A stretch of 64,000 bases of DNA. Origin: an uncultured Eubacteriales bacterium (GTDB lineage: Bacteria > Bacillota > Clostridia > Christensenellales > UBA1242). Position 1 is the stretch's first letter, and every line of letters starts with the position of its first letter. Location: assembly GCA_949001935.1 (NCBI GenBank), contig CARJLX010000001.1, positions 115-64,114 on the forward strand, read 5' to 3'. The position numbers and the translations under genes were made by a program. Below, one piece after another: positions 73 to 22,446 of the stretch. Below the pieces are notes generated by a model. That model was not told the origin of the DNA. It saw nothing but the letters and a program-made list of their open reading frames with translations, and ran no database searches.

Positions 73-765
73 TTATCGGCAAAGTTCATCATCATAAACA
101 GATAATTTTGTATCTCCATTTACTACATAATTTTCTTTACCTATACGTGCAGCTCCGTATACTTCTGCATTGTCGTAAACTTCGACATATTCCATGATTC
201 CTGCATGTCCATAAACTTTTGCATTACCATAAACTTTTGCAGCATTAAAGATTTCTGCATTTTCAAACACTTTGGCTTTACCAAAGACTTCAGCATGTCC
301 CGAAATATGTGCTTGACCTGAAATGTCAGCGCATTCATATACTTTTGCATTAGAGTCAACTCGCGCAAATTCTCGAATAGTGGCATCTCCATATACTTTG
401 GAATCTTCACTAATCTCCGCACACCCAAACACTTGTGCATGCCCATAGACCTGTGCGCTTCCAAAAATTTTCCCTTTCTCAAAAATTTGTGCGTTTCCTG
501 CAACTATCGCTTCCCCAGAAACGTGTGCGTCGTCTCTAACTTGTGCATTACCAAAAACAACTGCATCCATGCCAATCCAGCATGTGCCTTCTTGACTTAA
601 ATTGTCTTCACGCTCGATATATCCGCCTTTTGTGCCTTTTGCAACAAGAAGATAGCCTTTCTCGTCAACAATATCTTCCAAAGCTACAATACGGTGTAAA
701 ATTATTTCAGTCTTTCCTTCAATAATCTTAACATCTTCTTCATCTTGTGAAATTTGATATTTCAT
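73..765 (-). CDS. YdcK-like left-handed beta-helix (hexapeptide-repeat) protein
   Basis: About 23 consecutive hexads of the form [IV]-x-x-x-A-x (VFGNAQ VRDDAH VSGEAI VAGNAQ ...). The N-domain LHRIVALEDI..GGYIEREDNLSQEGTCWI resembles E. coli YdcK. Start moved to the ATG at 765 (MKYQISQ), which is preceded by GGAGG. Confidence 0.7.
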   Translation of the reverse strand: MKYQISQDEEDVKIIEGKTEIILHRIVALEDIVDEKGYLLVAKGTKGGYIEREDNLSQEGTCWIGMDAVVFGNAQVRDDAHVSGEAIVAGNAQIFEKGKIFGSAQVYGHAQVFGCAEISEDSKVYGDATIREFARVDSNAKVYECADISGQAHISGHAEVFGKAKVFENAEIFNAAKVYGNAKVYGHAGIMEYVEVYDNAEVYGAARIGKENYVVNGDTKLSVYDDELCR

Positions 766-803
766 TTTTTCCTCCATACAAAAATATTTTATCATATTTG
801 CTA

Positions 804-1544
804 TTATTTGTCAATAGTTTGTTGATTTTCTTCTTCAATTTGGGGATTAAGGACAATTTCTTGTTTTTGTTTCTTTTCAAGTTTAATCCATTCAAGCATT
901 CCATAGGCGTCATAGATTATTTGGAAAACATGATATATAATCATTGGAATAAAAGATAAATCTCCCTGCACCACAAGAAAGATCCAAAGGATAGGAACAA
1001 TAAAGTCGTTTATCAAAAATGCAACTTGATTCCACTTACATCTTCTGATTAAAAGATAAACAGCGGGCAGCATTGACAAAAACGAAAAAGTGTTTGTCAC
1101 AAGTTGATTTGTTTGCAGTGCTCTTAAAATAAAGAAAACTGCAACGCCAACACCAACAAAAGCGAGAGAAGAAAACAGCCATTCTTTCTTTGAGAGATTA
1201 CTTCGCACAATGACAACATTCTCTTTTTTATCTCTGTGCGCAAGCCAATGGATAACGCCATAAATATACATAGGCAACATGATGATTAAATATAAAAGTG
1301 CTTCGCCATAAAACTTTTGTGTGTAGCAGATGAAGATATAAAAACAAAAGTAAACAACACCAATAAATTGCGTTGCAATTTTTCCTTTGGCTTGTGTGAA
1401 AACGCATAACAATCCCAAAAGGGTGTTTGCGATAATAAACCATTCAGACTTAAACAAAATACCTGTGACAGTCACAGCAATTATGCCTGAAAGGATTAAA
1501 ACCAAATCAAGCCAATTATATCCTTTCCAAGTTTTTAATTTCAT
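804..1544 (-). CDS. pnuC: nicotinamide riboside transporter PnuC family
   Basis: Multi-TM protein with PnuC-like sequence (WLDLVLILSGIIAV.., ..IHWLAHRDKKE.., C-terminal YGMLEWIK). ATG at 1544 is preceded by GAGGTG and overlaps the upstream stop by 4 nt (ATGA). Confidence 0.8.
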   Translation of the reverse strand: MKLKTWKGYNWLDLVLILSGIIAVTVTGILFKSEWFIIANTLLGLLCVFTQAKGKIATQFIGVVYFCFYIFICYTQKFYGEALLYLIIMLPMYIYGVIHWLAHRDKKENVVIVRSNLSKKEWLFSSLAFVGVGVAVFFILRALQTNQLVTNTFSFLSMLPAVYLLIRRCKWNQVAFLINDFIVPILWIFLVVQGDLSFIPMIIYHVFQIIYDAYGMLEWIKLEKKQKQEIVLNPQIEEENQQTIDK

Positions 1545-2635
1545 TCGCACACCTCAACAAAGCAAGTTTCAATTTTGCCAGAAAAAGCAGAGTTGAAAAC
1601 TTCCACATAAGCACCAACATTCTTTATGACAAAAACAGTTTTGTTGTCAAGTTTACATTCTGGCAAAGAATAAATCCCAAGAACATCGAGAGAGTCTGCT
1701 GTTGGTCCTCTTAAAACAAGTTTTTGCTTGCTGTTTGCTTTTTCAAGTTTTATCATTTTTTCACCATTGTAGGCAAAAATCTCAAATTGTCTTTTGTGAA
1801 GCTGCGTATCTATTAAGCCATTATAAATCCCAAGTTCAAGTGACGCCACGACTTCATTATTAGTTCTTAAATTGTCAACAACTCTAACACATGACACATA
1901 AACATCTTCCACATCACCAACCAAATATCTTCCGGGCTCCAAAACGATATATTTTGCGCCAAAGTGTTCAAGTGCTTTTTCTATTGTTGGCATTGTGTAA
2001 AGTAAGCGCTCTTTATTTGCACCACCACCGATATTGATGAAATCTATGTTTATATTTTTGCTGAAAGACTTTGTTATGTGATTTAGCATTTTTATTAAGC
2101 AATCTTCATCATTGTGAATTTCCGCTTGAATATAAAAACTTAAACCTTTTTCTATTTCAATGCGATTTTCTTCGTTTATAATTTTTAAGAGTTTTGCTGC
2201 TGTGCTTACAACAGCGCCAAGACGAGAGTCTGTCGCACCTTTTTTGTCAAATTCTTCCTTAAAACACTCATACACATTAAGTCTTACATTGATTTTCAAC
2301 TTTGGCAATTTGTTTCTAATTGACAAATCGATAATTTGTTTTAGTGAATTTTCATCATCAATTGTATAGTAAGAAATTTTATGTTTTATTGCCCACAAAA
2401 TATCTTCTTGGGATTTGGCAACATTTGAAAACATAATCTTGTCAGCAATACTTCTTGAATAAACTTTCTTAATATGCTCAATGCTGTCAGTTTCAAATCC
2501 GCAACCAAGTCTTTTAAGTTCTTTTAAAATGATTGAGTTGTGATTTGTTTTAATGGGAAAATATACAGGACCAAATCCTGCAAACATTTTATAATTCTCT
2601 TTCAATTTTGCTGTGTTGATTTTATATGTTATCAT
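1541..2635 (-). CDS. type III PLP-dependent decarboxylase (Orn/DAP/Arg decarboxylase fold)
   Basis: Motifs FPIKTNHN (PLP-lysine region), GGGANK and EPGRYLVGD. Substrate cannot be assigned. Confidence 0.7.
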   Translation of the reverse strand: MITYKINTAKLKENYKMFAGFGPVYFPIKTNHNSIILKELKRLGCGFETDSIEHIKKVYSRSIADKIMFSNVAKSQEDILWAIKHKISYYTIDDENSLKQIIDLSIRNKLPKLKINVRLNVYECFKEEFDKKGATDSRLGAVVSTAAKLLKIINEENRIEIEKGLSFYIQAEIHNDEDCLIKMLNHITKSFSKNINIDFINIGGGANKERLLYTMPTIEKALEHFGAKYIVLEPGRYLVGDVEDVYVSCVRVVDNLRTNNEVVASLELGIYNGLIDTQLHKRQFEIFAYNGEKMIKLEKANSKQKLVLRGPTADSLDVLGIYSLPECKLDNKTVFVIKNVGAYVEVFNSAFSGKIETCFVEVCE

Positions 2636-2662
2636 GTAAATGCCTTTGTTCTAAGTTGCTAT

Positions 2663-3271
2663 TTATTCAAACACAAATCCTTCCGTGTTTTTAATGATAA
2701 ATTTGCCTTTTGAATATTCAAGTTCCGCACAAGCAACATCTTTGATGTCTAAAAGTTTTCTTTTTTCTTTCAATACTGTTTGAAAAATACTTCTTAAAAC
2801 ACCGCCATGAGTGATGATTGCAATATTGTTTAAACTTTTGCTTTCTTTAAGGATAAATTTCATCACATTTTTTGCGCGTTTATCCAATTCATCAGCGGTT
2901 TCGCCACCGGGCATACATTTTCTGTTATAATAACTTGCATTTTGATATTCTGGCTTTTCCAAGAGATAAGCAAAGAGTTCTTTTGCCAAATTCTTTTCGA
3001 GTCCTGTTAAATATCCATAGTGATTTGTTTCATGCAAATCAAAAACTTTTTCAACAGGGACATTTGTTTTCTTGTTGAGAATATCAGCAGTTTTATAGGC
3101 TCTTTTCAATGGGCTCACAAAGATTTTTTCAACATTAAGTTTTTCAAATTTTGGTCTAAATTTTTCAACTTTTTTTGCGCCATTTTCGGTTAAATCCCAA
3201 TCTGAAGCTCCGCCATAGCAGTTTATCAAATCGTCTTGCGATTCGCTGTGTCTTATCAAATAAATTTTCAT
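2663..3271 (-). CDS. histidine phosphatase (phosphoglycerate mutase-like) family protein
   Basis: N-terminal IYLIRHSES (RHG-type motif) and a later ITHGG. RBS AAGGAGA upstream. Confidence 0.75.
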   Translation of the reverse strand: MKIYLIRHSESQDDLINCYGGASDWDLTENGAKKVEKFRPKFEKLNVEKIFVSPLKRAYKTADILNKKTNVPVEKVFDLHETNHYGYLTGLEKNLAKELFAYLLEKPEYQNASYYNRKCMPGGETADELDKRAKNVMKFILKESKSLNNIAIITHGGVLRSIFQTVLKEKRKLLDIKDVACAELEYSKGKFIIKNTEGFVFE

Positions 3272-3289
3272 AGGTTTCTCCTTACGGAT

Positions 3290-3298
3290 ATTATAGCA
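3290..3298 (-). promoter_or_regulatory. extended -10 promoter (TGcTATAAT) for the phosphatase-decarboxylase-pnuC-ydcK-like operon
   Basis: The minus strand reads TGCTATAAT about 20 nt upstream of the ATG at 3271. Confidence 0.45.
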
Positions 3299-3339
3299 TA
3301 ATCTTCGCTATTTTGTATATGTTTTTTAGAAATTTATAT

Positions 3340-3369
3340 AAAAAAGAGTAAGGCGAAAAATCTTACTCT
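3340..3369 (-). terminator. rho-independent terminator of the SLOG gene
   Basis: Hairpin AGAGTAAG (3345-3352) / CTTACTCT (3362-3369), with a T-run on the minus strand. Confidence 0.5.
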
Positions 3370-3935
3370 TATGGCTTGATCAGTTCGATTTTTAGTCCTT
3401 TTTGTTTTGCTTTATTGACTGTGTATTTTGTGCCACCGGGTTTATTGTCAAACAAAGCAAACACAAGTGAAGAACAATTTAGCATATAGTCATTTCTTTC
3501 CAACATACATTTTGGGTTGTCGTCATATCTCTCATAAAGACAACGCACATCATCACATTGTTGTAAAAGATTTTTATATCTTGCAATTTGATTTTCTTTC
3601 CAAAGTCTGTATTGATCTCTGCATGGCAGTGCGGCGACAAGTTTTATTTGTGGATATTTCTCTTTTAGTTCCAAGACAATTTCTGCAAAAATCATATCAA
3701 ATCCAATTGCCATGCCAGATATGAAAACTTTGTATCCATTTTGAATTGCGTTTTCGACTTTTGCTTTTGTTCTTTTTCTCATATCAAGACATCTTATGTC
3801 TTGTTCATTAAATCCCCATGGGCATTTTTGCGGCCTATATCCAGTTGAGCAAGCAGTATATGCCGACATTTCTTCATTGATAAGTAAACACTCATCTTTA
3901 ATTTTGCCAATTGATTTTTTAAACCAAGTCATCAA
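3369..3935 (-). CDS. SLOG-superfamily protein, YpsA/DUF1273-like
   Basis: STGYRPQK.., Gly-rich loop FISGMAIGFD, and C-terminal KPGGTKYTV..KGLKI, all typical of the DUF1273/YpsA family. AAGGAG RBS. Confidence 0.7.
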   Translation of the reverse strand: MMTWFKKSIGKIKDECLLINEEMSAYTACSTGYRPQKCPWGFNEQDIRCLDMRKRTKAKVENAIQNGYKVFISGMAIGFDMIFAEIVLELKEKYPQIKLVAALPCRDQYRLWKENQIARYKNLLQQCDDVRCLYERYDDNPKCMLERNDYMLNCSSLVFALFDNKPGGTKYTVNKAKQKGLKIELIKP

Positions 3936-3946
3936 AAAACTCCTTT

Positions 3947-3968
3947 TAGTTATGTTTTTGCATAACTA
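3947..3968. promoter_or_regulatory. inverted-repeat operator candidate 1 (TAGTTATG-N6-CATAACTA)
   Basis: Seen directly in the divergent SLOG/XRE intergenic region. Confidence 0.4.
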
Positions 3969-4030
3969 TATTAGCACAAGTTTCTTCATTTTCAAAAAGA
4001 TTTTATGTTTTTACATAATTATTTATAAAA

Positions 4031-4054
4031 ATAGTTATGCTAAAATATAACTAT
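4031..4054. promoter_or_regulatory. inverted-repeat operator candidate 2 (ATAGTTAT-N8-ATAACTAT)
   Basis: Same AGTTAT/ATAACT half-sites as candidate 1, about 25 nt upstream of the first XRE gene. Confidence 0.4.
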
Positions 4055-4078
4055 CTAAAAACATAAAGGGGCGAGAAG

Positions 4079-4318
4079 ATGAGCGTTTCAAAAGCAGTGA
4101 CAGCAAGAATAAATGAGATATTGAGAGAAAAGGATTTGTCATGGTATAAAATCGAACAAATCACGGGCTTGTCAAAAGGAACGATTATATCGTTGCAGTA
4201 TTCAAGATATAAAGGTGTAAATCTAACAACTTTGGTTGTTATTATCAGAGCATTAGGCGTTTCCATTGATGAATTTTTCAAAAGTCCATTATTTAGTGAA
4301 GAAAACTTGGACTGCTAA
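4079..4318 (+). CDS. XRE-family helix-turn-helix transcriptional regulator
   Basis: 79 aa. HTH region LSWYKIEQITGLSKGTIISLQ. RBS GGGGCGAGAAG. Confidence 0.75.
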   Translation: MSVSKAVTARINEILREKDLSWYKIEQITGLSKGTIISLQYSRYKGVNLTTLVVIIRALGVSIDEFFKSPLFSEENLDC

Positions 4319-4342
4319 ACGCTTTCTCACATGGGTGGTTGT

Positions 4343-4588
4343 ATGACAATAAGCAAATGTGTTTCTCAAAGATTGCGTGAGATTTTATTTGAAAAACAGA
4401 TAACTATATATAAGTTATGTGAAATTAGCGGATTAAGCAAAGGCACAATTACATCTTTGTTGTATAATCGTTATGAAAGTGTAAATATGAAAACAGTTTT
4501 CATTTTACTTCAAACAATGTCAATCCCGGTGCTGCAATTTTTTGACAGTCCTTTATTTGCTGACTTGGATAATATCAATTTATATTAA
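4343..4588 (+). CDS. XRE-family HTH regulator, tandem paralog
   Basis: Aligns along its whole length with the preceding protein (R..EIL.EK....YK..EI(S/T)GLSKGTI.SL.Y.RY..VN..T......). Start placed at MTISK. Confidence 0.7.
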   Translation: MTISKCVSQRLREILFEKQITIYKLCEISGLSKGTITSLLYNRYESVNMKTVFILLQTMSIPVLQFFDSPLFADLDNINLY

Positions 4589-4601
4589 AAATAGATAAAA
4601 A

Positions 4602-4623
4602 ATACTCCCTGTTAGGGGAGTAT
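4602..4623. terminator. bidirectional terminator between convergent genes
   Basis: ATACTCCC / GGGAGTAT stem with a 6-nt loop, A-run before and T-rich tract after. Confidence 0.6.
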
Positions 4624-4635
4624 TTGTATTTTGCG

Positions 4636-6057
4636 TTATTTTAAGATTTTCCAATAGCCATTTTTGTCGGCGCCACATCTTTCAATAAAACCGTTGTCTT
4701 TCAAAGTTTTTATTGCTCTTTTGACTGTTCTGTCAGATTTTCCAGATAGCTTCTTTAAATCTTCAGCAGTATATGAATTTTTCTTTTTTATCCACTCATA
4801 TACAGTTTTTACAGTGCCATTTAGTGGGACATTTACAGTGCCATTTAGTGGGACATTGTCAATAATATGTTCCACAGGGTCAATCCCATCAAGTGGGATA
4901 ACAAGTTGCTTGTTATAATTTGAATTATATATAACAACCCTAAAAAATCCGCCTGAACAATAAAATTCAACATGATTGTCCTTATCACCAAAAAGACGAT
5001 TTGTTCTATCGGTTATCTTTTTGAGTCCAGTTCCACGTCTTTCCATGAAATTCATTCTGGCAAACAAGTCGGCTAAAATAGGGTTTCGTCTTGCAGATGT
5101 GACAACATCTGTCATTTGCTGTTTGATCTCTTGCCCAGAGTACATTCCGCCGGGTGAAGTGATTTCAAGTCTATCATCAAACAAATTTATACTTACTTCT
5201 GATCCAAGTTGAGTATATTCTCGGTGTATAATAGCATTGACAATAGCTTCCCTTATAGCTTCCTCATCATAGTCTGGGTTTACTATACGATCTAAGCCTT
5301 CAATGTGCCAATTTTTCTTTGTGTTGTTTCTAACAAAGTCCAAAGCAGAAAACAGTTGTCCGATAACTCCGCCAGAGATTTCTTTGTCATCAATAGCTTT
5401 GTTTATAGATGTTTTATCTAATCCAATCCAATGAGTGCAGAAAATTCTATTCTGTCTATAAATGTTTTGGTCTGCGAGTAAAACACCTGCATTTGTCAAA
5501 TAACCTTCATTAGTTGCAAGCCCGAAAGAAATATAGTCTTGTTCAGTTATTTTAGTATAAGTCTTTTCTAAAAAGGTTGCTTCAAATAAAGTAAATGAGT
5601 AATCCGATTTTCTATATCTTGTGACTAAGCTGTCATAAGTTTGGTTTGTTCCTTTCAAAATCAGTTCGTTAAGAATATGAACGGGTGCAACAACGGACTC
5701 GTTGCCACTTCTTATATAGGCTTCTCGAATTCCGTCACTTTCATAATAATATGGGGTTGATGTGCCGGGATAAACTTTTACTATCACAACAACTTTTCCA
5801 TTTTCATTTTGTGGGATCAATTCGTATTTCGGTGTAGGTTTTATCTTTGAGTTGATTTTCTCTGAAATAAAGTCACATACTTCTTGTGGGTTTTCAATCC
5901 CTACAATCTTGCGATCATTGTCAACTCCAAAGAATAGAGATCCGCCCATATTATTGGCAAAGGCCGAAACAGATTTAAGCCAACTTTTTGGTCTTTGTCT
6001 TTCAACTTGCACTTTAAAATCATAGTCAGAACATTCTGCAATAAGTTTTGATAACAT
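4636..6057 (-). CDS. AlbA_2 (Schlafen-like) DNA-binding domain + HATPase_c_4-like ATPase + C-terminal wHTH regulator
   Basis: N-terminal ECSDYDFK..WLKSVSAFANN.GG.LFFGV, middle REAIVNAIIHREY...LEITSPGG, C-terminal winged-helix-like tail. AGGAGA RBS. Confidence 0.7.
   Translation of the reverse strand: MLSKLIAECSDYDFKVQVERQRPKSWLKSVSAFANNMGGSLFFGVDNDRKIVGIENPQEVCDFISEKINSKIKPTPKYELIPQNENGKVVVIVKVYPGTSTPYYYESDGIREAYIRSGNESVVAPVHILNELILKGTNQTYDSLVTRYRKSDYSFTLFEATFLEKTYTKITEQDYISFGLATNEGYLTNAGVLLADQNIYRQNRIFCTHWIGLDKTSINKAIDDKEISGGVIGQLFSALDFVRNNTKKNWHIEGLDRIVNPDYDEEAIREAIVNAIIHREYTQLGSEVSINLFDDRLEITSPGGMYSGQEIKQQMTDVVTSARRNPILADLFARMNFMERRGTGLKKITDRTNRLFGDKDNHVEFYCSGGFFRVVIYNSNYNKQLVIPLDGIDPVEHIIDNVPLNGTVNVPLNGTVKTVYEWIKKKNSYTAEDLKKLSGKSDRTVKRAIKTLKDNGFIERCGADKNGYWKILK
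4811..4858. repeat. tandem 24-bp duplication inside the AlbA_2 gene
   Basis: ACAGTGCCATTTAGTGGGACATT(T/G) occurs twice and encodes NVPLNGTV NVPLNGTV in frame. Confidence 0.9.
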
Positions 6058-6138
6058 ATAATTCTCCTAAATAATAATTTGAGTATATCATATTTAGGGC
6101 AAAAATTCAAATCTTAATGTCAAAAATTAAAAACTATT

Positions 6139-7335
6139 TTATAATTCGCTGATTGCAAGAATGTTGAGTTCTGGATATTGTTCTTTGTATTGTTCAACCA
6201 AATTGTCGGGAACATAAACTTCTGCGTTGAGCAAATAGTCCTTATCATAGCCAATATCCAAAACAATGTTTGGTCTATAAATTATTCTTTGTAAACTATC
6301 ACAGCCTGCGACACATGGCAAATAATAATCAACTCCTTCTGGCACATCAATTTCTTTCAATGTCTCGCAAACATGAAAGGCTGCAAATTCAATTCTTGTC
6401 ACAGTGTCGGGTATTGTTATTTGTTCCAAACTTACACAGCCCCAAAATGCACTATCACAGATTGCAGTTATTTTTCCTTTAAATTCAATACTCTTTAAAT
6501 TTGAACACGCATTACATAGTCCATTTGGCACTTGTGTGATTTGTGTTGGCAAAACAAGACTTTCCAAAGCGCTATTAGAGAAACATGAATATCCTATTGA
6601 TATTAAACTTTCTGGCAATTCGATCTCTTTTATATTTGAGCTTGAAAAAGCACAAGTTCCTATATGAGTTATACCTTCTGGCACAATCACTTTTTCAACT
6701 GATGTTTCTGCAAAAGCATTTTCAGCAATAGATGTCACTTGGAAATCGTTGCCTTCAACAAAGATCTCTTTTTTTTCTTTATATATAATAGGAAAGGCAT
6801 CATCAATATTTTCAAGTTCTGGCAAAATGTTTGAAGAATTATAAATAACATAATCCTCGCCATTTGCAAGTTGAATAGTTATCTCTTTGCCTTTCCATTC
6901 AAATTGTTGATTGTGATACCATTCATAGAAATCCCAAATATTCTCAAAAGTTTTTTCTTCTGTTTTATATCCACCAATTGAATATGATGTTGGGATTGTT
7001 ATTTCATTGTTTGTTGCAGTGCAACCAGTGAAAGCTCCGTCTTTAAATGAAAAAGGAATGATTGTTCCAACGATTTCATCTTCTTTTGGTTTCTCATCTT
7101 CTTTCGGTGGTTTTGGGGGGATGACATCAGCAGGCTTCTTATTTTCTTCGTCATCTTTGTCTGTTGGGTTGTCATCTGGCAATTCCGGTGGCGTTTCTGG
7201 ATCCACCGGGATTTCAATGGCTGGTCCATTGTTGTCATTTTGTGGCGCTGTTTTTGGAATACAGCATAAAAGAATAGTAGTGCCAACAATAAGCACAAAA
7301 GCTATGGCACCAATAATAATCCAAAATTTTTTCAT
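6139..7335 (-). CDS. BspA-type leucine-rich-repeat surface protein with N-terminal membrane anchor
   Basis: TM helix FWIIIGAIAFVLIVGTTILLCCI, Pro/Glu/Asp/Lys-rich linker, then repeats of the ..I.IP..VT.I...AF..C..L..I.. type. Confidence 0.7.
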   Translation of the reverse strand: MKKFWIIIGAIAFVLIVGTTILLCCIPKTAPQNDNNGPAIEIPVDPETPPELPDDNPTDKDDEENKKPADVIPPKPPKEDEKPKEDEIVGTIIPFSFKDGAFTGCTATNNEITIPTSYSIGGYKTEEKTFENIWDFYEWYHNQQFEWKGKEITIQLANGEDYVIYNSSNILPELENIDDAFPIIYKEKKEIFVEGNDFQVTSIAENAFAETSVEKVIVPEGITHIGTCAFSSSNIKEIELPESLISIGYSCFSNSALESLVLPTQITQVPNGLCNACSNLKSIEFKGKITAICDSAFWGCVSLEQITIPDTVTRIEFAAFHVCETLKEIDVPEGVDYYLPCVAGCDSLQRIIYRPNIVLDIGYDKDYLLNAEVYVPDNLVEQYKEQYPELNILAISEL

Positions 7336-7390
7336 TGTTATACTTCCTTATTTAAAATTTAAAAAATAAAAAATAAGCAAAATTGCTTAC

Positions 7391-7643
7391 TTGTGACGAA
7401 TTTTTGCAAGAAAAATGCAAAATTTTTGCAAAAGTGCCGTTTTGTGCTTTTGTTTAACGGCAAAATGTTGTATAATGTTTTTTGTTAAAGTGAAATCGCT
7501 AAACTGCCGATAAATAGGCACATATAGGCACTTTAATAAACGATATAAAATGGTAAAATCTGACGGAAAACACGAACAGCCAGCAATGAGTTTCGACAAC
7601 TTCGGAACTTAGTGTGAGGGTTCGAGTCCTTCTGGGAGCACCA
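7391..7643 (+). repeat. 253-bp repeat unit A (direct repeat of 11072-11324)
   Basis: Ungapped alignment with unit B. The first 58 nt are identical. By hand count there are about 51 mismatches in 253 nt, concentrated in the middle. Confidence 0.9.
7483..7643 (+). ncRNA. candidate small RNA A ending in a tRNA-like T-arm/acceptor/ACCA minihelix
   Basis: TATAAT at 7471-7476. The 3' end reads GAGGG-TTCGAGT-CCTTC-TGGGAGC-A-CCA (7616-7643). No D arm or anticodon arm was found. Confidence 0.35.
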
Positions 7644-7689
7644 GTAATTTCTATTTTGTGACGAACTTGTTGCAAATTTACATAAAATT

Positions 7690-8919
7690 TTATATTTTAA
7701 GAGAGGATTCATTTGTTTCTAATCCTTCTTCTTTTTCTTTTATTTCGTTATTATAGATTTTTTCAGCTTTAATAAAAAGAGATGAAGATATTATTTGAAT
7801 TAACGATAAAGTCAGTATGATTATACTTAATGAAATTTCATTTGGTATAACATTGTAAATGAAAAAAGCGATTAAATAAGCAAAAGTTTTAAAAATATGG
7901 TCATAATAATTAAAGGTTAGGTGGTGTTCTTTTTTATATTGTGAAAATTCTGTATTTTCTATTGCGGTATAAATATCTTGAGCTGTGCGGTGGCTGATGA
8001 TCTTTCGACAGCATTTTAACACAAAATAATATATAAAGAATCCCACAATTGAAGTCCATGCTGTAAGCATAATTGAAACTGCGACAATTAATATAGTACT
8101 TATCATAAGCAACGGATCTTTGAATTTGTATAGTTTAAGGTAAATTATGAGAACGATTCCACTTGCAACGACAGCTAAAGCAGAATATAAACCCACAGAA
8201 AAATTTGTACCAACTCGCATAAATAATAAAATTGGTAAAAGTAAATCAACAACACTATTTTGAGAAAACTTATAAAGTCCAAGTGCAAGATAAGTCATTC
8301 TTACACGTTTGATTTTATGTGTACCTTTAATAAAGTCTCTAATTTTGATTTGTGGTGCTTCAACCCAACCTTTTTTGACCCCAAAAGAAAGCAAAAAACA
8401 AATAAAAGCAATTACAAGAATAACCGCAAATAATATGTAGTATGAAACATAATCTATTATATAACCTGAGATAAATGGGCTTAGGACACTTGCAAAGAGT
8501 GATAAAAATTGAGATACCCCTAAGAAAGAAACCATTGTTTTCTTAGTATTATAATTCATTGTTGCAATTTCATGCGGTACATAATAGCAACCCCTTGCAA
8601 AGGCATATATAGCTTGCACAATAAAAACCATATATAGTCGAGAGGAGTTGATTGTGAAAACTAAACTGATTGAAACTAATGACATTACAAAACTTAGGCG
8701 ATAAACAATGTTAAAATTCTTTTTATTTAAAAATTTTATGAACAAGAATTCTAAAAACATATAAAAAATACAATCAAATAGGTTGTACCCCAAAACAAAA
8801 TTGAGGTTTTGAGAAATGCCATAAATATAAATTGAAAAAAATATATCAAAAAAAACAAATATCATTTGCATAAGCATATTGATTAGTTGTAAACAGGTTT
8901 TATCTTTTGGAAATTTCAT
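7690..8919 (-). CDS. MFS-like multi-pass membrane transporter
   Basis: 409 aa and about 12 hydrophobic segments in two halves separated by a basic loop (KIKRVRMTY). AGGAGA RBS. Confidence 0.55.
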   Translation of the reverse strand: MKFPKDKTCLQLINMLMQMIFVFFDIFFSIYIYGISQNLNFVLGYNLFDCIFYMFLEFLFIKFLNKKNFNIVYRLSFVMSLVSISLVFTINSSRLYMVFIVQAIYAFARGCYYVPHEIATMNYNTKKTMVSFLGVSQFLSLFASVLSPFISGYIIDYVSYYILFAVILVIAFICFLLSFGVKKGWVEAPQIKIRDFIKGTHKIKRVRMTYLALGLYKFSQNSVVDLLLPILLFMRVGTNFSVGLYSALAVVASGIVLIIYLKLYKFKDPLLMISTILIVAVSIMLTAWTSIVGFFIYYFVLKCCRKIISHRTAQDIYTAIENTEFSQYKKEHHLTFNYYDHIFKTFAYLIAFFIYNVIPNEISLSIIILTLSLIQIISSSLFIKAEKIYNNEIKEKEEGLETNESSLKI

Positions 8920-9065
8920 TTTTTCTCCTACCTATTAATAATAATTCAAAGGCAATTATAAGTCAAGTTTTATGTCTTGTAAAAGACAAATTTTAATATT
9001 AGGTTAGTAAATTGTTATGTTTTGTTGTAAAAATATGTTATAATAATTTTGTTTTGGAGGTACAT

Positions 9066-9815
9066 GTGAATAAAAAAGGTTTTAAACTTATATTTAATGA
9101 AAATTTTAAAAATTTAGACAATTGGAATTTTGAAGAGGGATTTGTTAGAAATCATGAGTTTCAGTATTATACAAAAAACAATCATGTTTTAAATAACGGA
9201 ATAACAATGATTTGTAAAAAAGAAAAGGTTGTTAATAAAAATTATAAAAAAGATTCAAATGATTGGCGTTGTGAAGATAAATTTGCAAATTACACATCTT
9301 GTTCAATTAATACAAAGGATAAGTTTTCATTTTTATACGGACATATGGAAGTTAAAGCTAAAATACCATGTGAAAAAGGGGCTTGGCCTGCCATCTGGAT
9401 GCTTGGCGCAGTTGAAGAATATCCATATTGCGATGAAATCGATGTTATGGAAAAATATGAAATAGATGGGGAGCCGTCCATTTTAGCAAATTTTATGTGC
9501 AGCTTTGATGGCTCGTATTTATGGAGTACAAAATATAAATCTTTAGAATTGTTTCAATCTATTGATAAAGATTGGGCAAACAAATTTCATATATGGTCTG
9601 TGGATTGGACAAAGGATTATATGAATATTTATATAGACGACATTTTAATAAATTCGATAGACAGCAAAAATATAGCAGGTAATAAATTTAAAAAGCCACT
9701 TTATATTTTACTGAATTTGGCTATAGGTCAAAAGGGGACCAAACCAAATGATGAAGATTTACCACTTAAATATATCATTGAATATGTTAAAGTTTGGCAA
9801 AAAGGAGACAAGTAA
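9066..9815 (+). CDS. glycoside hydrolase family 16 (beta-glucanase/laminarinase-like), no signal peptide
   Basis: GAWPAIWMLG followed by the catalytic EIDVME (ExDxxE) motif. GTG start after GGAGG. The N-terminus VNKKGFKLIFNENF is not hydrophobic. Confidence 0.8.
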   Translation: MNKKGFKLIFNENFKNLDNWNFEEGFVRNHEFQYYTKNNHVLNNGITMICKKEKVVNKNYKKDSNDWRCEDKFANYTSCSINTKDKFSFLYGHMEVKAKIPCEKGAWPAIWMLGAVEEYPYCDEIDVMEKYEIDGEPSILANFMCSFDGSYLWSTKYKSLELFQSIDKDWANKFHIWSVDWTKDYMNIYIDDILINSIDSKNIAGNKFKKPLYILLNLAIGQKGTKPNDEDLPLKYIIEYVKVWQKGDK

Positions 9816-9816
9816 T

Positions 9817-11064
9817 ATGCAGAAAAAAATTTTCCCATTAGGGTTTTGGAACTACTCCTCAGCAGGAGATTATGATTTAGATGAGTGTAAAGTTTGGAAA
9901 GAACTTGGTATAACAGTTACAATGAGCCATGAGTTTTATGCGGATAAAGATAGTAAACAAGAATTTTTAGCATTTTTGGATGAATGCCATAAGCAGGGTT
10001 TAAAAATTATAGTTTGTGATAGCAGAACTTCTTGGCGAGAACATAAAAATACTAAGCTTGACGAATATGAAAAAGATGTAAAGTCCGCTGTTGCAGATTT
10101 TGGAAATCATCCGGCTGTTTTTGGATTTAGCGTTGGCGATGAGCCCGGGGATGATGATTTTGAAGTTGCAATAAAAGGGTGCCAATTCTGTTTTAAATAT
10201 GCACCTAAACTACAACCATTTGTGAATTTTTTCCAATATAATCCTAATACCGAGCGTAAACATCTTAACAGTAAAGATTTTAAAAAATGGATGTCTAGCT
10301 TTATTAAACTATCTAAATTAAAAATTATTTGCTATGATGAATATAGGCAAATGGATGGGACAGAAGAAGGATTAAACGAATATTTTGAAAACTTAAAAAT
10401 TTTCCAAGAATTTTCCGTAAGAAACAAATGTGATTGGTGGGTAACTCCATCCGCAGTAGGCCATTGGGATAGGCGAATTCCTTCTGCCACAGATTTGCAG
10501 TGGCAATTTAATACAGCCGTTGCCGCAGGAGCAAAGGGTATTATATGGTTCTTTTTATATCAACGAGAACCCCATGTAAATTTCGAAGGAGCTCCTATTG
10601 ATGAATATGGTCACAAAAGAGAAAATTTTTATGAACTTGCAAGATTGCAAAAGAATTTTTTAAATATGTATGGGAATCTATTTGCAAATCTCAAACTAAT
10701 TAAATATTGCCATGCAAAAGAAAAATATTATGGCTATGGCGGAGTAGAAAAATTTGTTGCAGGAGAAGATAAGTTCGTGATAGATATTAAAAGCAAATAT
10801 TCCACGCCAATAAGTTATTCGGTTTTTAAAGACAACAATGATAATATTTATTTAGTATTTGTAAACTTAAGTCAAACAAAAAGTGATAACTTTACATTAA
10901 GTTTTAATAGTAGCATAAACAAAGTGGAACAATTAATGTTTAATAATTGTTTGAAAGATATTCAGTTTAGTCATCAAGATAATAATTTTATCAAGAAATT
11001 AAATATCGTGTATAGCACATGGATGTCTCCAGGACAAATGAATGTATATAAAATAACAAAATAA
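9817..11064 (+). CDS. putative clan GH-A (TIM-barrel) glycoside hydrolase, family unassigned
   Basis: GFSVGDEPG (acid/base-type motif), GAKGIIWFF, no signal peptide. AAGGAGA RBS before MQKKIFPLGFWNY. Confidence 0.4.
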   Translation: MQKKIFPLGFWNYSSAGDYDLDECKVWKELGITVTMSHEFYADKDSKQEFLAFLDECHKQGLKIIVCDSRTSWREHKNTKLDEYEKDVKSAVADFGNHPAVFGFSVGDEPGDDDFEVAIKGCQFCFKYAPKLQPFVNFFQYNPNTERKHLNSKDFKKWMSSFIKLSKLKIICYDEYRQMDGTEEGLNEYFENLKIFQEFSVRNKCDWWVTPSAVGHWDRRIPSATDLQWQFNTAVAAGAKGIIWFFLYQREPHVNFEGAPIDEYGHKRENFYELARLQKNFLNMYGNLFANLKLIKYCHAKEKYYGYGGVEKFVAGEDKFVIDIKSKYSTPISYSVFKDNNDNIYLVFVNLSQTKSDNFTLSFNSSINKVEQLMFNNCLKDIQFSHQDNNFIKKLNIVYSTWMSPGQMNVYKITK

Positions 11065-11071
11065 AAAATAT

Positions 11072-11324
11072 TTGTGACGAATTTTTGCAAGAAAAATGCA
11101 AAATTTTTGCAAAAGTGCCGTTTTGTGCTATGTTTTCTTGGCAAAATGTTGTATAATACTTTTTGTTAAAGTGAAATTGCTAAACATTCGATAAATAAAG
11201 GGATTTAGGCACTTTACGATACGATAAAATATGGTGCAAAACGGCATGAAAAACGAACTCCCGATATTGTATTTATACAACTTCGGAACGATTATCGAGG
11301 GTTCGAGTCCTTCTGGGTGCACCA
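11072..11324 (+). repeat. 253-bp repeat unit B
   Basis: See unit A. Same length and same ends. Confidence 0.9.
11164..11324 (+). ncRNA. candidate small RNA B with tRNA-like 3' minihelix
   Basis: TATAAT at 11152-11157. The 3' end reads GAGGG-TTCGAGT-CCTTC-TGGGTGC-A-CCA (11297-11324). Confidence 0.35.
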
Positions 11325-12759: not shown

Positions 12760-13302
12760 ATGAAATACTTTTTGTCTATTGTATGTGTTTTGGGAATTGT
12801 TGTTGTGCTTATACTTTGTGGAGTTAAAGTTCCAAGTAAAAATCAAGTGTTGACACCAGAAAATTATCTTAGAATTCATATTCGTGCCAATTCAAATGAT
12901 GAAATTGACCAAAAGGTAAAATACAAAGTTAAAGATGCTGTTGTTGAGGCATTGATTCCTGTGCTTGCAGAGTGCGAAGATAAGAGTCAGGCTTGTAAGG
13001 TTTTAAAATCTAATTTTGCTTATATAGAAAAGGTTGCTAACAATGTTTTGAGGGCTAATGGATTTGATTATGTGTCTAAAGCACAATTTAATAGAGAATA
13101 TTTTCCAACACGCGTGTATGAAAGTGTTACATTGCCAGAGGGCGAGTATGATGCACTAGTTTTAAACCTTGGAAGTGGAGAAGGAAACAACTGGTGGTGC
13201 GTGGTTTATCCTGCTTTTTGCTTTCTTGAAACAAAAAATTACGACAATATTGTATATATTTCGCGAATTTGGGACATTATTAAAAATGTAATCAAAATAT
13301 AG
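12760..13302 (+). CDS. spoIIR: stage II sporulation protein R
   Basis: Signal anchor, then LRIHIRANSNDEIDQKVKYKVKDAV and GEGNNWWCVVYPAFCF, both typical of SpoIIR. Confidence 0.9.
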   Translation: MKYFLSIVCVLGIVVVLILCGVKVPSKNQVLTPENYLRIHIRANSNDEIDQKVKYKVKDAVVEALIPVLAECEDKSQACKVLKSNFAYIEKVANNVLRANGFDYVSKAQFNREYFPTRVYESVTLPEGEYDALVLNLGSGEGNNWWCVVYPAFCFLETKNYDNIVYISRIWDIIKNVIKI

Positions 13303-13310
13303 GAGGATTT

Positions 13311-13994
13311 ATGAAAAAATTTTTGATAGCCTTTTGTTGCATGTTTTTTGTACTTGCAATGGGGGTAGGTGCAGTTGGTTTTACATATTCACAACACAAT
13401 AATATTGAACTTGTTGAAACATTAACAACTTCGCAAAACAAACAGGTGCAAACCAAACTTAAAAATTGGGGATATTACAAAGGTTCTGTAGATGGAATCT
13501 ATGGCCCTAAAACTAGAGAAGCCGTAAAATATTTTCAACGCAAAAATGGGTTGGTTGTAGATGGAATAGTCGGCAAAAAGACTGCAGCCGCTATGGGAAT
13601 TTCTCTTTCTGGAAGTACTGGAGGCACAACAGGTGGACAATCTAGCAGTGACCTAAACTTGCTTGCAAAGTGTGTACACGCAGAAGCGAGAGGTGAAAGT
13701 TATGTAGGACAGGTAGCAGTTGCCGCTGTTATTTTGAATAGAGTAAAAAGTAAAAACTTCCCAAATTCAATCGCAGGCGTTATTTATCAACCATGGGCAT
13801 TTACTTGTGTAAATGATGGGCAGATAAATTTGGCGGCAAATCAAACAGCAATTAAGGCTGCTCAAGATGCTTTGAATGGATGGGATCCTACATACGGTGC
13901 TTTATATTATTATAACCCAAGAACTGCATCAAGCAGTTGGATATTCTCAAGAAAAACAACCGTGACAATCGGTCAACATGTGTTTGCAATTTAG
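13311..13994 (+). CDS. sleB: spore cortex-lytic enzyme SleB-like (PG_binding_1 + Hydrolase_2)
   Basis: YGPKTREAVKYFQRKNGLVVDGIVGKKT, then HAEARGESYVGQVAVAAVILNRV...AGVIYQPWAF. Followed by ypeB, as in Bacillus. Confidence 0.85.
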   Translation: MKKFLIAFCCMFFVLAMGVGAVGFTYSQHNNIELVETLTTSQNKQVQTKLKNWGYYKGSVDGIYGPKTREAVKYFQRKNGLVVDGIVGKKTAAAMGISLSGSTGGTTGGQSSSDLNLLAKCVHAEARGESYVGQVAVAAVILNRVKSKNFPNSIAGVIYQPWAFTCVNDGQINLAANQTAIKAAQDALNGWDPTYGALYYYNPRTASSSWIFSRKTTVTIGQHVFAI

Positions 13995-14003
13995 GAGGGC
14001 TGT

Positions 14004-15485
14004 ATGGAAGAGAATAAAAATTTAAAACAAAAAAGTACAAAAAATACTACAAATAATCAAGAAAAAGTTAAAAATAACTTTCCAAATGTAAAAAAAGAAG
14101 ATAAAAGCAAAAAACAAACAATATCTAAAAAAACAACTTCTCATAGTAAAGGTATGAAGGCAGCGGTTATAACTTTGGCAATAACTACAGGTGTTTTGGG
14201 ACTTTCTACCATAGGATTTGCTGCTTGGAGCGGAGTTGCTCAAAATAAAGTTGAAGACTATAGCAATAGATTGGAAGCAGTTTATCAAAAGAGTTTTTAT
14301 GACCTTGTAGATAATGTTAATAATGCAGAAATAAATATGTCTAAAGTGTTGGCATCAAATACTGCAAGTTATCAAAAGAAAATGCTTTCTCAGGTTGCAG
14401 ATAATGCAACAAATGCTCAAGCAAGTTTTTCAAGTTTGCCATTAACTTATAGCAGTTTGAATGATAGTCTTGGGCTTTTAAATCAAATAGGTGGTTATAC
14501 AAAAACTTTAAATGAGAAGTTAGCGAGTGGAGAAGAACTTACTTTAAATGAAATTGAAACCTTAGACAAATTGCATAGTGTTTTGCTTGAAATTAAGGCT
14601 CAATTAAACAAATTGTCTATTAAAATGCGTCAAGGTTATAATATTTTGGACAACAGTTTAAACCTTGATAGTGGAAATAACTTTACTTTAGATTTATCTA
14701 AGATTAAGACGGTCGATGTTGAATATCCTTCTATGATTTACGATGGACCTTTCTCTGATAGTGTGACAAATGCTGCCGTTAAAGGTTTGCATGGCAATAA
14801 AGTTAGTAAAGAAGAGAGCAGAGATAAAATTGCTAAACTCTTCAAAAATATTGTTTCTCTTGAGTTTGAACAAGATACTCAAGGTAGGTTTGAAACTTAT
14901 AACTATCGTCTTAGAACTTCGGACAATACAACCTTGTATGTTCAAACAACTCAAATAGGTGGACATGTGTTGACAGTGTCTGGTGCTAGTGGCAATAATG
15001 GAGAGGTTACAATTGAAAATGATGATGCTCAAAAAATGGCAGTTGAATTTGCAAAGGCAAATGGCATTGAAAATCCACTTGTAGTTTGGACTGACACAAT
15101 TGATAGTCAAGCATATTTAAATATTGCTCCAACTCAAAATGGTGTAGTATTATATCCAGACCTTGTTAAAGTTAAAATTGACCTTAATAATGGTACTGTT
15201 GTAGGCTATGACGCAACATCATATTTTACAAATCATACAACTCGCCAACTTGAAAGTGATTCATATAGCCAAGATAAGGCAAGAGCGAGAATACCAGAAA
15301 ACTTTGTTATCAAAAGTGAAAGGATTGTGCTTGCCCCGCTTGATTATAATCGAGAAGTGTTATGTTTTGAGTTTGCTTGTGATAATGATAATAATGAATA
15401 TTATTTCTATATCAATGCAAAAACAGGTCAAGATGAAAATATCCTTCGTGTTATTCAAACCGAAAATGGGAATAAATTAATGTAA
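14004..15485 (+). CDS. ypeB: germination protein YpeB
   Basis: Basic N-terminus plus TM segment, long helical region, C-terminal PepSY-like repeats. Position immediately after sleB. Confidence 0.8.
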   Translation: MEENKNLKQKSTKNTTNNQEKVKNNFPNVKKEDKSKKQTISKKTTSHSKGMKAAVITLAITTGVLGLSTIGFAAWSGVAQNKVEDYSNRLEAVYQKSFYDLVDNVNNAEINMSKVLASNTASYQKKMLSQVADNATNAQASFSSLPLTYSSLNDSLGLLNQIGGYTKTLNEKLASGEELTLNEIETLDKLHSVLLEIKAQLNKLSIKMRQGYNILDNSLNLDSGNNFTLDLSKIKTVDVEYPSMIYDGPFSDSVTNAAVKGLHGNKVSKEESRDKIAKLFKNIVSLEFEQDTQGRFETYNYRLRTSDNTTLYVQTTQIGGHVLTVSGASGNNGEVTIENDDAQKMAVEFAKANGIENPLVVWTDTIDSQAYLNIAPTQNGVVLYPDLVKVKIDLNNGTVVGYDATSYFTNHTTRQLESDSYSQDKARARIPENFVIKSERIVLAPLDYNREVLCFEFACDNDNNEYYFYINAKTGQDENILRVIQTENGNKLM

Positions 15486-22009: not shown

Positions 22010-22276
22010 TTATTCAGCGGCAGAAACTTTATTGTATTCTTCCATAATCGCTGTTCTAATAAGTTCGCGGGTTTCTGTGTTGATTGGATGAACGATATCT
22101 TTATATTCGCCTTCAGGAGTTTTTCTTGATGGCATTGAAATGAAAAGACCGTCTTTTCCAAGGATGATTTTGATGTCATGTACTACAAAGCAATCTTCAA
22201 TAGTGATTGAAGCTACAGCTTTAAGTTTAGCATCTTCTTTTGAAACCATTCTTACTCTAACATCTGTGATTTTCAA
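22010..22276 (-). CDS. spoVG: septation protein SpoVG
   Basis: [59 protein letters not shown] start. Confidence 0.9.
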
Positions 22277-22446
22277 GTCCTTATACCTTCCTTTTTTAAG
22301 TTTTCTTTCGCTTATAATCTTTAAGCCTAGTTATATAATACTATTTTTTACGATTTTTACCAAATAATTTTAAATCTTTTATAAATTTTTTTAAAGATTT
22401 ACTCTTTCTTGACAACATAAAGAGGTCTTTTTTCATAAATTTTATT

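Follow-up and report, generated by a model that had tools for sequence, protein, structure and literature searches.

A CCA-ending tRNA-like sequence behind a -10-like box in uncultured gut Clostridia as a probable attachment-site junction of elements integrating at tRNA-Arg(UCG)

In the attP site of phage lambda, the arm-type Int sites and the tandem Xis sites stand at a fixed spacing to the core, and the genomic islands found at the tmRNA gene ssrA of Dehalococcoides reportedly form tandem arrays in which repeats of the 3' end of that gene stand between the islands. The Dehalococcoides islands integrate site-specifically at ssrA (PMC3146451). For islands that use tRNA genes, displaced tDNA fragments mark the island ends (PMC4383910), and attP sites centred on the anticodon are the commonest class, accounting for 2083 of 3919 islands, with tandem arrays also known (Islander, PMC4383910). 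CIMEs have been described as well, together with accretion by integration into attR (PMC5704250).

The locus analysed here, Element A, lies in a 64-kb stretch of DNA (the window) and ends in what looks like the 3' part of a tRNA. The original prediction had presented it as a candidate ~160-nt RNA of a new small-RNA class with a tRNA-mimic 3' domain, and the motifs cited for this are all in place: the TATAAT box (7471-7476), CTTCGG (7600-7605), the T arm GAGGG/TTCGAGT/CCTTC (7616-7632), TGGGAGC (7633-7639), A (7640) and CCA (7641-7643). The lack of an upstream 5' acceptor strand, D arm and 5' anticodon-stem strand was confirmed with ARAGORN and a 5'-half pattern search, and ARAGORN called 0 genes in the window, in agreement with the view that Element A is neither a tRNA nor a standard tmRNA. 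The supposed C(UUCG)G tetraloop, by contrast, represents an anticodon loop of 7 nt, CUUCGGA, with the anticodon UCG but without its 5' stem strand. From the evidence given below we conclude, with a probability of about 0.85, that Element A is an attR-type recombination junction with tandem accretion and not an RNA gene; this corresponds to the alternative that had been listed last, a fossil att site of a tRNA-targeting element. The observations that carry this conclusion are the identity of the tRNA fragment, the position of the junction across the family, the layout of the elements in relatives and the strain polymorphism at the core. The coordinates of the features are collected in Table 1.

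Table 1. Features at and between the two junctions in the window.
Feature	Position	Strand	Basis or remark
Conserved right-end arm (P-arm type) of integrative element	7388-7599	+	ungapped alignment to 11069-11280
TTGTGACGAA motif opening the arm module	7391-7400	+	starts both units; again at 7656
Three tandem 11-bp direct repeats, TTTTTGCAAGA / AAAATGCAAAA / TTTTTGCAAAA	7401-7433	+	read from the sequence
-10-like TATAAT box	7471-7476	+	TTGTATART conserved in all units
Common core and crossover region, CTTCGGAAC	7600-7608	+	tRNA-Arg(UCG) anticodon loop plus 2 nt
Displaced tRNA-Arg(UCG) 3' fragment, positions 32-76	7600-7643	+	identity to L020 gene
GTAAT trailer	7644-7648	+	common to the genuine L020 tRNA gene
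Integrase-less islet (CIME-like)	7644-11068		between the two junctions
P'-arm-like motif, TTGTGACGAACTTGTTGCAAATTT	7656-7679	+	repeats the arm motif; left end of the next islet
MFS transporter	7690-8919	-	Pfam
GH16	9012-9815	+	Pfam
438-aa protein without Pfam match	9748-11064	+	ORF
Second element arm (Element B)	11069-11280	+	paralogue of 7388-7599
Second displaced tRNA-Arg(UCG) 3' fragment	11281-11324	+	acceptor strand TGGGTGC, different allele

Element A is a 256-nt unit (7388-7643) which aligns without gaps to positions 11069-11324, where a second such unit (Element B) is found 3,681 bp downstream. The two units are nearly identical over the first ~90 nt, about 65-80% identical in the middle and again nearly identical over the last 45 nt; the 25-mer at 7619-7643 recurs at 11300-11324 with a single mismatch (expected number 0.00 in 100 shuffles), and an exact 32-mer is present only at 7401 and 11082 in the window, with 0 expected. 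The fragment at the end of Element A consists, in this order, of the anticodon loop, the 3' anticodon stem, the variable loop, the T arm, the 3' acceptor strand, the discriminator base and CCA. Positions 7600-7648 match an ARAGORN-called tRNA-Arg(UCG) gene of a related Clostridia MAG (L020) at 49 of 49 nt, from C32 through CCA and including the 5-nt trailer (L020: ...CATAAGT-CTTCGGA-ACTTA-GTGT-GAGGG-TTCGAGT-CCTTC-TGGGAGC-A-CCA-GTAAT), while the corresponding fragment of Element B is identical to the 3' part of another tRNA-Arg(UCG) gene (L041). Upstream of position 32 the tRNA is replaced by unrelated sequence in Element A, and a tRNA-Arg 5' half is absent from the window at up to 3 mismatches. 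A canonical tRNA gene was rejected on the same grounds, as the cloverleaf is incomplete and the sequence 5' of CTTCGGA is unrelated to tRNA. The identity to the L020 gene bears out what the original prediction had itself named as refuting it, a CCA end that duplicates the 3' end of a genuine tRNA gene. The site is not a bare scar, though, since an element arm of ~210 bp, conserved and with repeated motifs of protein-binding type, belongs to it.

A scan with the 25-mer of one genome per GTDB species returned 52 loci. At most of these loci the matching sequence forms the 3' end of a tRNA called by ARAGORN, in the Clostridia MAGs a tRNA-Arg(UCG), and 11 genome loci have the same arrangement as Element A without a tRNA call. 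A metagenome scan with the upstream repeat-plus-box pattern added 14 further units, giving about 25 related units in total, in gut Clostridia MAGs and metagenomes; the arm has no match in viral contigs, phage records or plasmid records. All parts of the arm, which spans both the 'promoter' and the 115-nt 'leader' of the original prediction, recur across the family: TGTSACRAA, three tandem 11-bp repeats (WWWWTGCAARA), TTGTATART and an AT-rich leader of about 115 nt, with ~70-75% identity and a near-constant length in about 25 units, and with a distance from the -10 box to CCA of 162-163 nt in all units. The junction lies at C32 in 23/23 aligned units, where the leader ends at CTTCGGA; this heptamer is invariant in the same 23 units, and the next two bases are nearly so. 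The sequence just 5' of the core holds no inverted repeat of the 3' anticodon-stem strand, contrary to what a symmetric core predicts.

The tRNA-Arg(UCG) 3' halves attached to these arms differ widely in their T arms and acceptor strands, as is seen from their endings (L058 ...CAGAAGCACCA; L061 ...CGGGAGCGCCA; L062a ...GTGGAGCACCA; L066 ...CGGACGCACCA; L070 ...GCGGTGCGCCA). Near-identical leaders bear different acceptor strands (L019 vs L058 and L070), and the leader and the tRNA half therefore have separate histories and are joined at the anticodon loop. A variant unit is found in L052 (reverse strand, oriented 690-780 and 3025-3110), where the leader is followed, in place of a tRNA half, by a ~75-nt sequence (GGTCGCGACCAARCGCAACTCTTGTTTCACTTCGAGTTGGTCGCGAC...) that also occurs ~70 nt downstream of the intact tRNA-Arg gene; this shared sequence, in which CACTTCGAG is found, may represent a secondary att site or a pseudo-att site.

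The arrangement of complete elements was seen in relatives. L074, which was found by a protein search with the integrase remnant of L011/L004, is the only locus where one element has both an integrase and a unit: in the orientation of the tRNA it contains an intact tRNA-Arg(UCG), a terminator, arm motifs, a tyrosine integrase (Phage_int_SAM_5 and Phage_integrase, split into two ORFs by one frameshift) and genes for HTH_17 (Xis-like), MobL and AbiEii, followed about 9.7 kb further on by a unit with a tRNA 3' half, fused at CTTCGGA. This is a textbook attL-int...attR layout, with the arm at the far end of the integrase-bearing element and the integrase gene convergent with the unit. Directly upstream of its intact tRNA-Arg(UCG) lies a degenerate second tRNA-Arg-like sequence (10840-10960, reverse strand) with the anticodon loop CTTCGGA, which is not called by ARAGORN.

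A shorter version is present in L011 and L004. Their intact tRNA-Arg(UCG) is followed by a terminator, a TGTCACGAA...TTTTTGCAAAATGCCG module, an integrase remnant and one cargo gene, and then, at 1.7 kb from this tRNA, by a bare tRNA 3' half. The remnant is the C-terminus of a tyrosine recombinase (HDLRHS...LGHS...Y) on the strand opposite to the tRNA. Inspection by eye of the regions beside intact tRNA-Arg genes at 10 MAG loci revealed no recombinase-like ORF, and the remnant surfaced only on reading the DNA itself. Motifs of the arm return on the integrase side of these elements: TGTSACGAA-related motifs adjoin the integrase in L011 and L074, the equivalent of the 7656-7679 module sits between tRNA and integrase in both, and the 11-bp repeats, conserved family-wide, have two similar counterparts on the integrase side in L074. 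The best 120 database matches of the integrase C-terminal fragment are all short (91-166 aa), and in assemblies this integrase lineage seems to be represented far more often by truncated or frameshifted copies than by intact genes; where the context of the short copies was fetched, they adjoin tRNA-Arg(UCG), tRNA-Arg(ACG) or tRNA-Met genes.

L062 is a tandem array, in which an intact tRNA is followed by five cargo genes, a first unit, a DUF402 gene and a second unit; the cargo encodes CysRS, NUDIX, HipA, an HTH protein and one protein of no assigned family, and lacks an integrase. In L034, the flanking sequence that follows the unit matches the one that follows the intact tRNA in L013, which indicates that the unit occupies the tRNA's own chromosomal site. 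The displaced tRNA halves mostly retain their own terminator hairpin.

Close-relative contigs, recovered by exact-protein look-up, allowed a comparison of strains at the junction itself. L080 is ~99.7% identical to the window across the left flank, and L081 is 99.75% identical over 635-6225 and ~89% identical over 6577-7643; the LRR gene and the leader of Element A are common to all three. Homology is lost directly after ...GACAA-CTTCGGAAC, from where the right flanks differ: the window continues with TTAGTGTGAGGGTTCGAGTCC...GGGAGCACCA-GTAAT, L080 with TCGGCGTATGGGTTCGAATCC...GAGAGCGCCA, a ribosome binding site ~40 nt after CCA and then different genes, and L081 with GTTTATCGAGGGTTCGAGTCC...GGACGCACCA and then a terminator. 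This break is direct evidence of DNA exchange at the core, and a shared core of 9 nt is too short to have produced an assembly mis-join.

In the window itself, the two junctions 7388-7643 and 11069-11324 enclose an islet of 3.7 kb which is bounded by att-type direct repeats and contains no integration or transfer genes (Pfam, HMM). The lack of an integrase in this islet points to tandem accretion, with a later element having entered an existing attR. Its GH16 ORF and the ORF for the 438-aa protein overlap by 68 nt (9748-9815) in different frames, which could mean that a single gene is frameshifted or that a start codon is mis-set; the 438-aa protein has no record in the assembly index. No tyrosine recombinase ORF was found anywhere in the 64-kb window, either by tblastn or with an HMM built from 120 fragments, nor was an intact tRNA-Arg gene, so that neither attL nor the recombinase for these two junctions is seen there; a related-strain contig reaching 10 kb past the left edge of the window contains no tRNA either. 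The elements of the window are probably immobile now, or else mobilised in trans.

On the left, positions 7388-7599 are the right arm of an element whose far end lies outside the window. A 95%-identical relative (GCA_949878485.1, L053) is syntenic with it over positions 1-2635 only, and the correspondence ends at 2636, just upstream of an ornithine/arginine decarboxylase-like gene. Between 2663 and 7335 the genes are of island type and include a histidine phosphatase, YpsA/SLOG, two Cro/C1 HTH proteins, a Schlafen AlbA_2 ATPase-HTH protein and a BspA-type LRR lipoprotein. Downstream of the second junction the genes are of housekeeping type, starting with a hydrolase (11541) and including spoIIR, sleB and ypeB. 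The regions 12760-15485 and about 22010-22300 (minus strand) contain a sporulation and germination cluster (spoIIR, a sleB-type cell-wall hydrolase, ypeB) and an ORF, judged spoVG-like by eye from the DNA, which ends just before a chance match to TTGTGACGAA; the host, at 33% G+C, is an endospore former among the Firmicutes.

We propose that these loci belong to a family of integrative (mobilizable) elements of uncultured gut Clostridia, whose tyrosine integrase would recombine with tRNA-Arg(UCG) at the anticodon loop, using CTTCGGAAC as the common core. The incoming element would provide a replacement 3' half and terminator, so that the tRNA is regenerated at attL, while the original 3' half would be displaced to the far end and become fused to the ~210-bp right arm of the element. 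This arm comprises the TGTGACGAA motif, the three phased 11-bp TGCAA repeats, the -10-like box and the AT-rich spacer of fixed length, and the two units in the window would represent two such junctions. The three repeats are candidate arm-type Int or Xis binding sites. A sequence that resembles a promoter-driven RNA with an encoded CCA is in this case a tRNA gene fragment at the boundary of a mobile element, and Element A should be annotated neither as a small RNA nor as a tRNA.

With regard to transcription, the junction might at the same time be a working transcription unit, in which an outward promoter in the arm reads across the core. One role would be the expression of genes downstream of attR or of captured cassettes, comparable to Pc of integrons; in another, an RNA made from the excised circle would be convergent with the integrase gene, or antisense to it, and would regulate integration and excision. 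The TATAAT box of the original prediction is present and conserved in the family, but it lacks an acceptable -35 and a sigma-70 promoter scan makes no call there; the AT-rich stretch has no more promoter-like sites than its shuffles. The module of TGCAA repeats and -10 box also occurs without a tRNA half, in L063 (784-960), where it is followed by a leader of ~45 nt, GGAGG and an ATG-initiated ORF, and in L070 (reverse strand, oriented 5490-5680), where it is upstream of an ORF. This suggests that the module may be a genuine regulated promoter which has been reused, and the -10 box is possibly an outward-facing promoter; the conserved box and spacing, together with the module before ORFs in L063 and L070, make transcription of the junction, and a read-out transcript across it, plausible. 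The placing of the ribosome binding site and ORF start of L080 on the same strand ~40 nt after CCA, the same-strand genes after the unit in Element B (hydrolase, 11541), L026, L035, L036 and L045, and the convergent integrase of L074 all agree with such a function. Against it, there is no -35, the next gene is on the opposite strand in L019, L033, L048/L062b, L050 and after Element A in the window, and the tRNA halves usually keep their own terminator hairpin. We consider it unlikely that the junction doubles as a transcription unit, and equally doubtful that an RNA of leader plus tRNA half, or outward transcription itself, is part of how the element family works. If it were, each islet would carry a promoter into the next and form a tRNA-anchored, integron-like cassette array, or alternatively the RNA would act in the excised circle as a control on the convergent integrase gene. 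If the -10 box gives rise to a transcript, this is probably a read-out by-product or a regulatory RNA, not a structured RNA.

An independent small-RNA gene, with a transcript of ~160 nt that imitates the T arm and the acceptor of a tRNA in its 3' domain and serves as substrate for RNase P or a CCA-adding enzyme, or forms a Y-RNA-like module, is very improbable. The conserved -10-like box and the near-constant length across the family would fit such a gene, as would the minimum free energy (MFE) of Element A, which taken singly folds better than its shuffles (z = -3.17). Covariation analysis turned out negative: in RNAalifold of 23 units the T stem is the sole consensus helix, and its compensatory changes, in four of the five pairs, are expected for diverse tRNAs, while the 115-nt leader shows neither a consensus helix nor covariation, leaving the proposed class without a conserved fold in its 23 relatives. 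The MFE fold was rejected as evidence of an RNA, since despite its z score the structure is not conserved: 60.8% of cells pair across the family vs 59.5% in shuffles, with compensatory pairs below the shuffle mean. Pairing is possible in most members between UGGU (7551-7554) and the 3' ACCA, and between CGAAC (7573-7577) and GUUCG of the T loop. These pairings (TCGAAC of the leader with GUUCGA of the T loop, and UGGU with ACCA) were dismissed, as they are invariant, never covary and are lost in the divergent L035, L036, L050, L057 and L066; the conservation of UGGU and CGAAC may be caused by protein binding on the DNA.

A further point against an RNA gene is that the tRNA-like part varies independently of the upstream part, even between near-identical strains. 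Because acceptor strands differ between near-identical leaders (L019 vs L058/L070; the window vs L080/L081), no partner in cis can be maintained, and none was found for the 5' side of the acceptor; with nothing to pair with the 3' acceptor strand, a minihelix of RNase P type cannot form. Homology searches against Rfam 15 gave no family at the gathering score in the whole window, with 0 matches to bacterial Y RNA (as far as Rfam 15 has models for it) or to tRNA-like elements, and a permissive scan of 7300-7750 reached a best E of at least 0.16, which is at chance level and far below the gathering score. A tmRNA, whether standard or two-piece, was neither called by ARAGORN nor matched by Rfam in the window, and an assignment of Element A to tRNA, tmRNA or a known RNA family was discarded on these negative results. 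Two further candidates were set aside as well. A small ORF in the leader, starting with ATGG at 7550 (20 aa in A, 32 aa in B), has no ribosome binding site, and its frame relative to CTTCGGA differs in other members, as judged by eye; a guide RNA of TnpB/IscB type or an IS110 bridge RNA is not matched by the neighbouring genes, which have no transposase-type Pfam match, the enzyme found being a tyrosine integrase.

Split tRNA genes whose halves are joined in trans exist in Nanoarchaeum, and the promoter-like box and leader before the tRNA 3' half, as well as several unit-bearing MAGs without a second match to an intact tRNA-Arg(UCG) sharing the 3' end, would suit a stand-alone 3' half joined to a separate 5' half, but this is hardly credible given that a 5'-half gene is absent from the window, the fragment begins at position 32 whereas the canonical split is at 37/38, L062 and L074 have intact tRNA-Arg(UCG) genes alongside their units, and the leader covaries with nothing.

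Returning to the reading of Element A as an attR-type junction, the site is a hot spot of gene flux in this lineage of uncultured gut Clostridia, with at least two tandem junctions in the window and three different right-hand partners among closely related strains, and the conserved arm together with the core (CTTCGGAAC) could be used to map tRNA-Arg(UCG)-targeted islands in these MAGs. [quoted passage not shown] As in that class, the block of identity covers the tRNA from its anticodon loop to its 3' end, and the fragments are the 3' part of genuine tRNA genes (49/49 nt for L020; L041 for Element B). The differences are that a tyrosine integrase inside the interval is seen in L074 (frameshifted) and as a remnant in L011/L004 but not in the window, and that an intact cognate tDNA, present in L062 and L074, is absent from the 64-kb window and the 10 kb further left in a related strain, so that the window would fail the Islander filters; furthermore, the arm shows unusually strong conservation among many species-level MAGs and includes a -10-like box.

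The islet also resembles the CIMEs and tandem ICEs and IMEs, such as those related to ICESt1 of Streptococcus thermophilus (PMC5704250), in lacking an integrase and lying between repeated att-type sites, and the layouts of 7644-11068 and of the L062 islands fit later integration into a resident attR; this is a likeness of layout, and the site used here is the tRNA-Arg(UCG) anticodon loop of uncultured Clostridia. The Dehalococcoides islands likewise target a gene for a small stable RNA (PMC3146451), with another target gene and another host lineage. The attP of phage lambda may be compared in that phased direct repeats within an arm of ~200 bp stand at a fixed distance from a short core, and that related motifs are present on both arms here too, a likeness taken from sequence layout only. 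Compared with these systems, Element A is an ordinary island boundary, an att site and not a new RNA class, and the junction itself is a well-known kind of feature.
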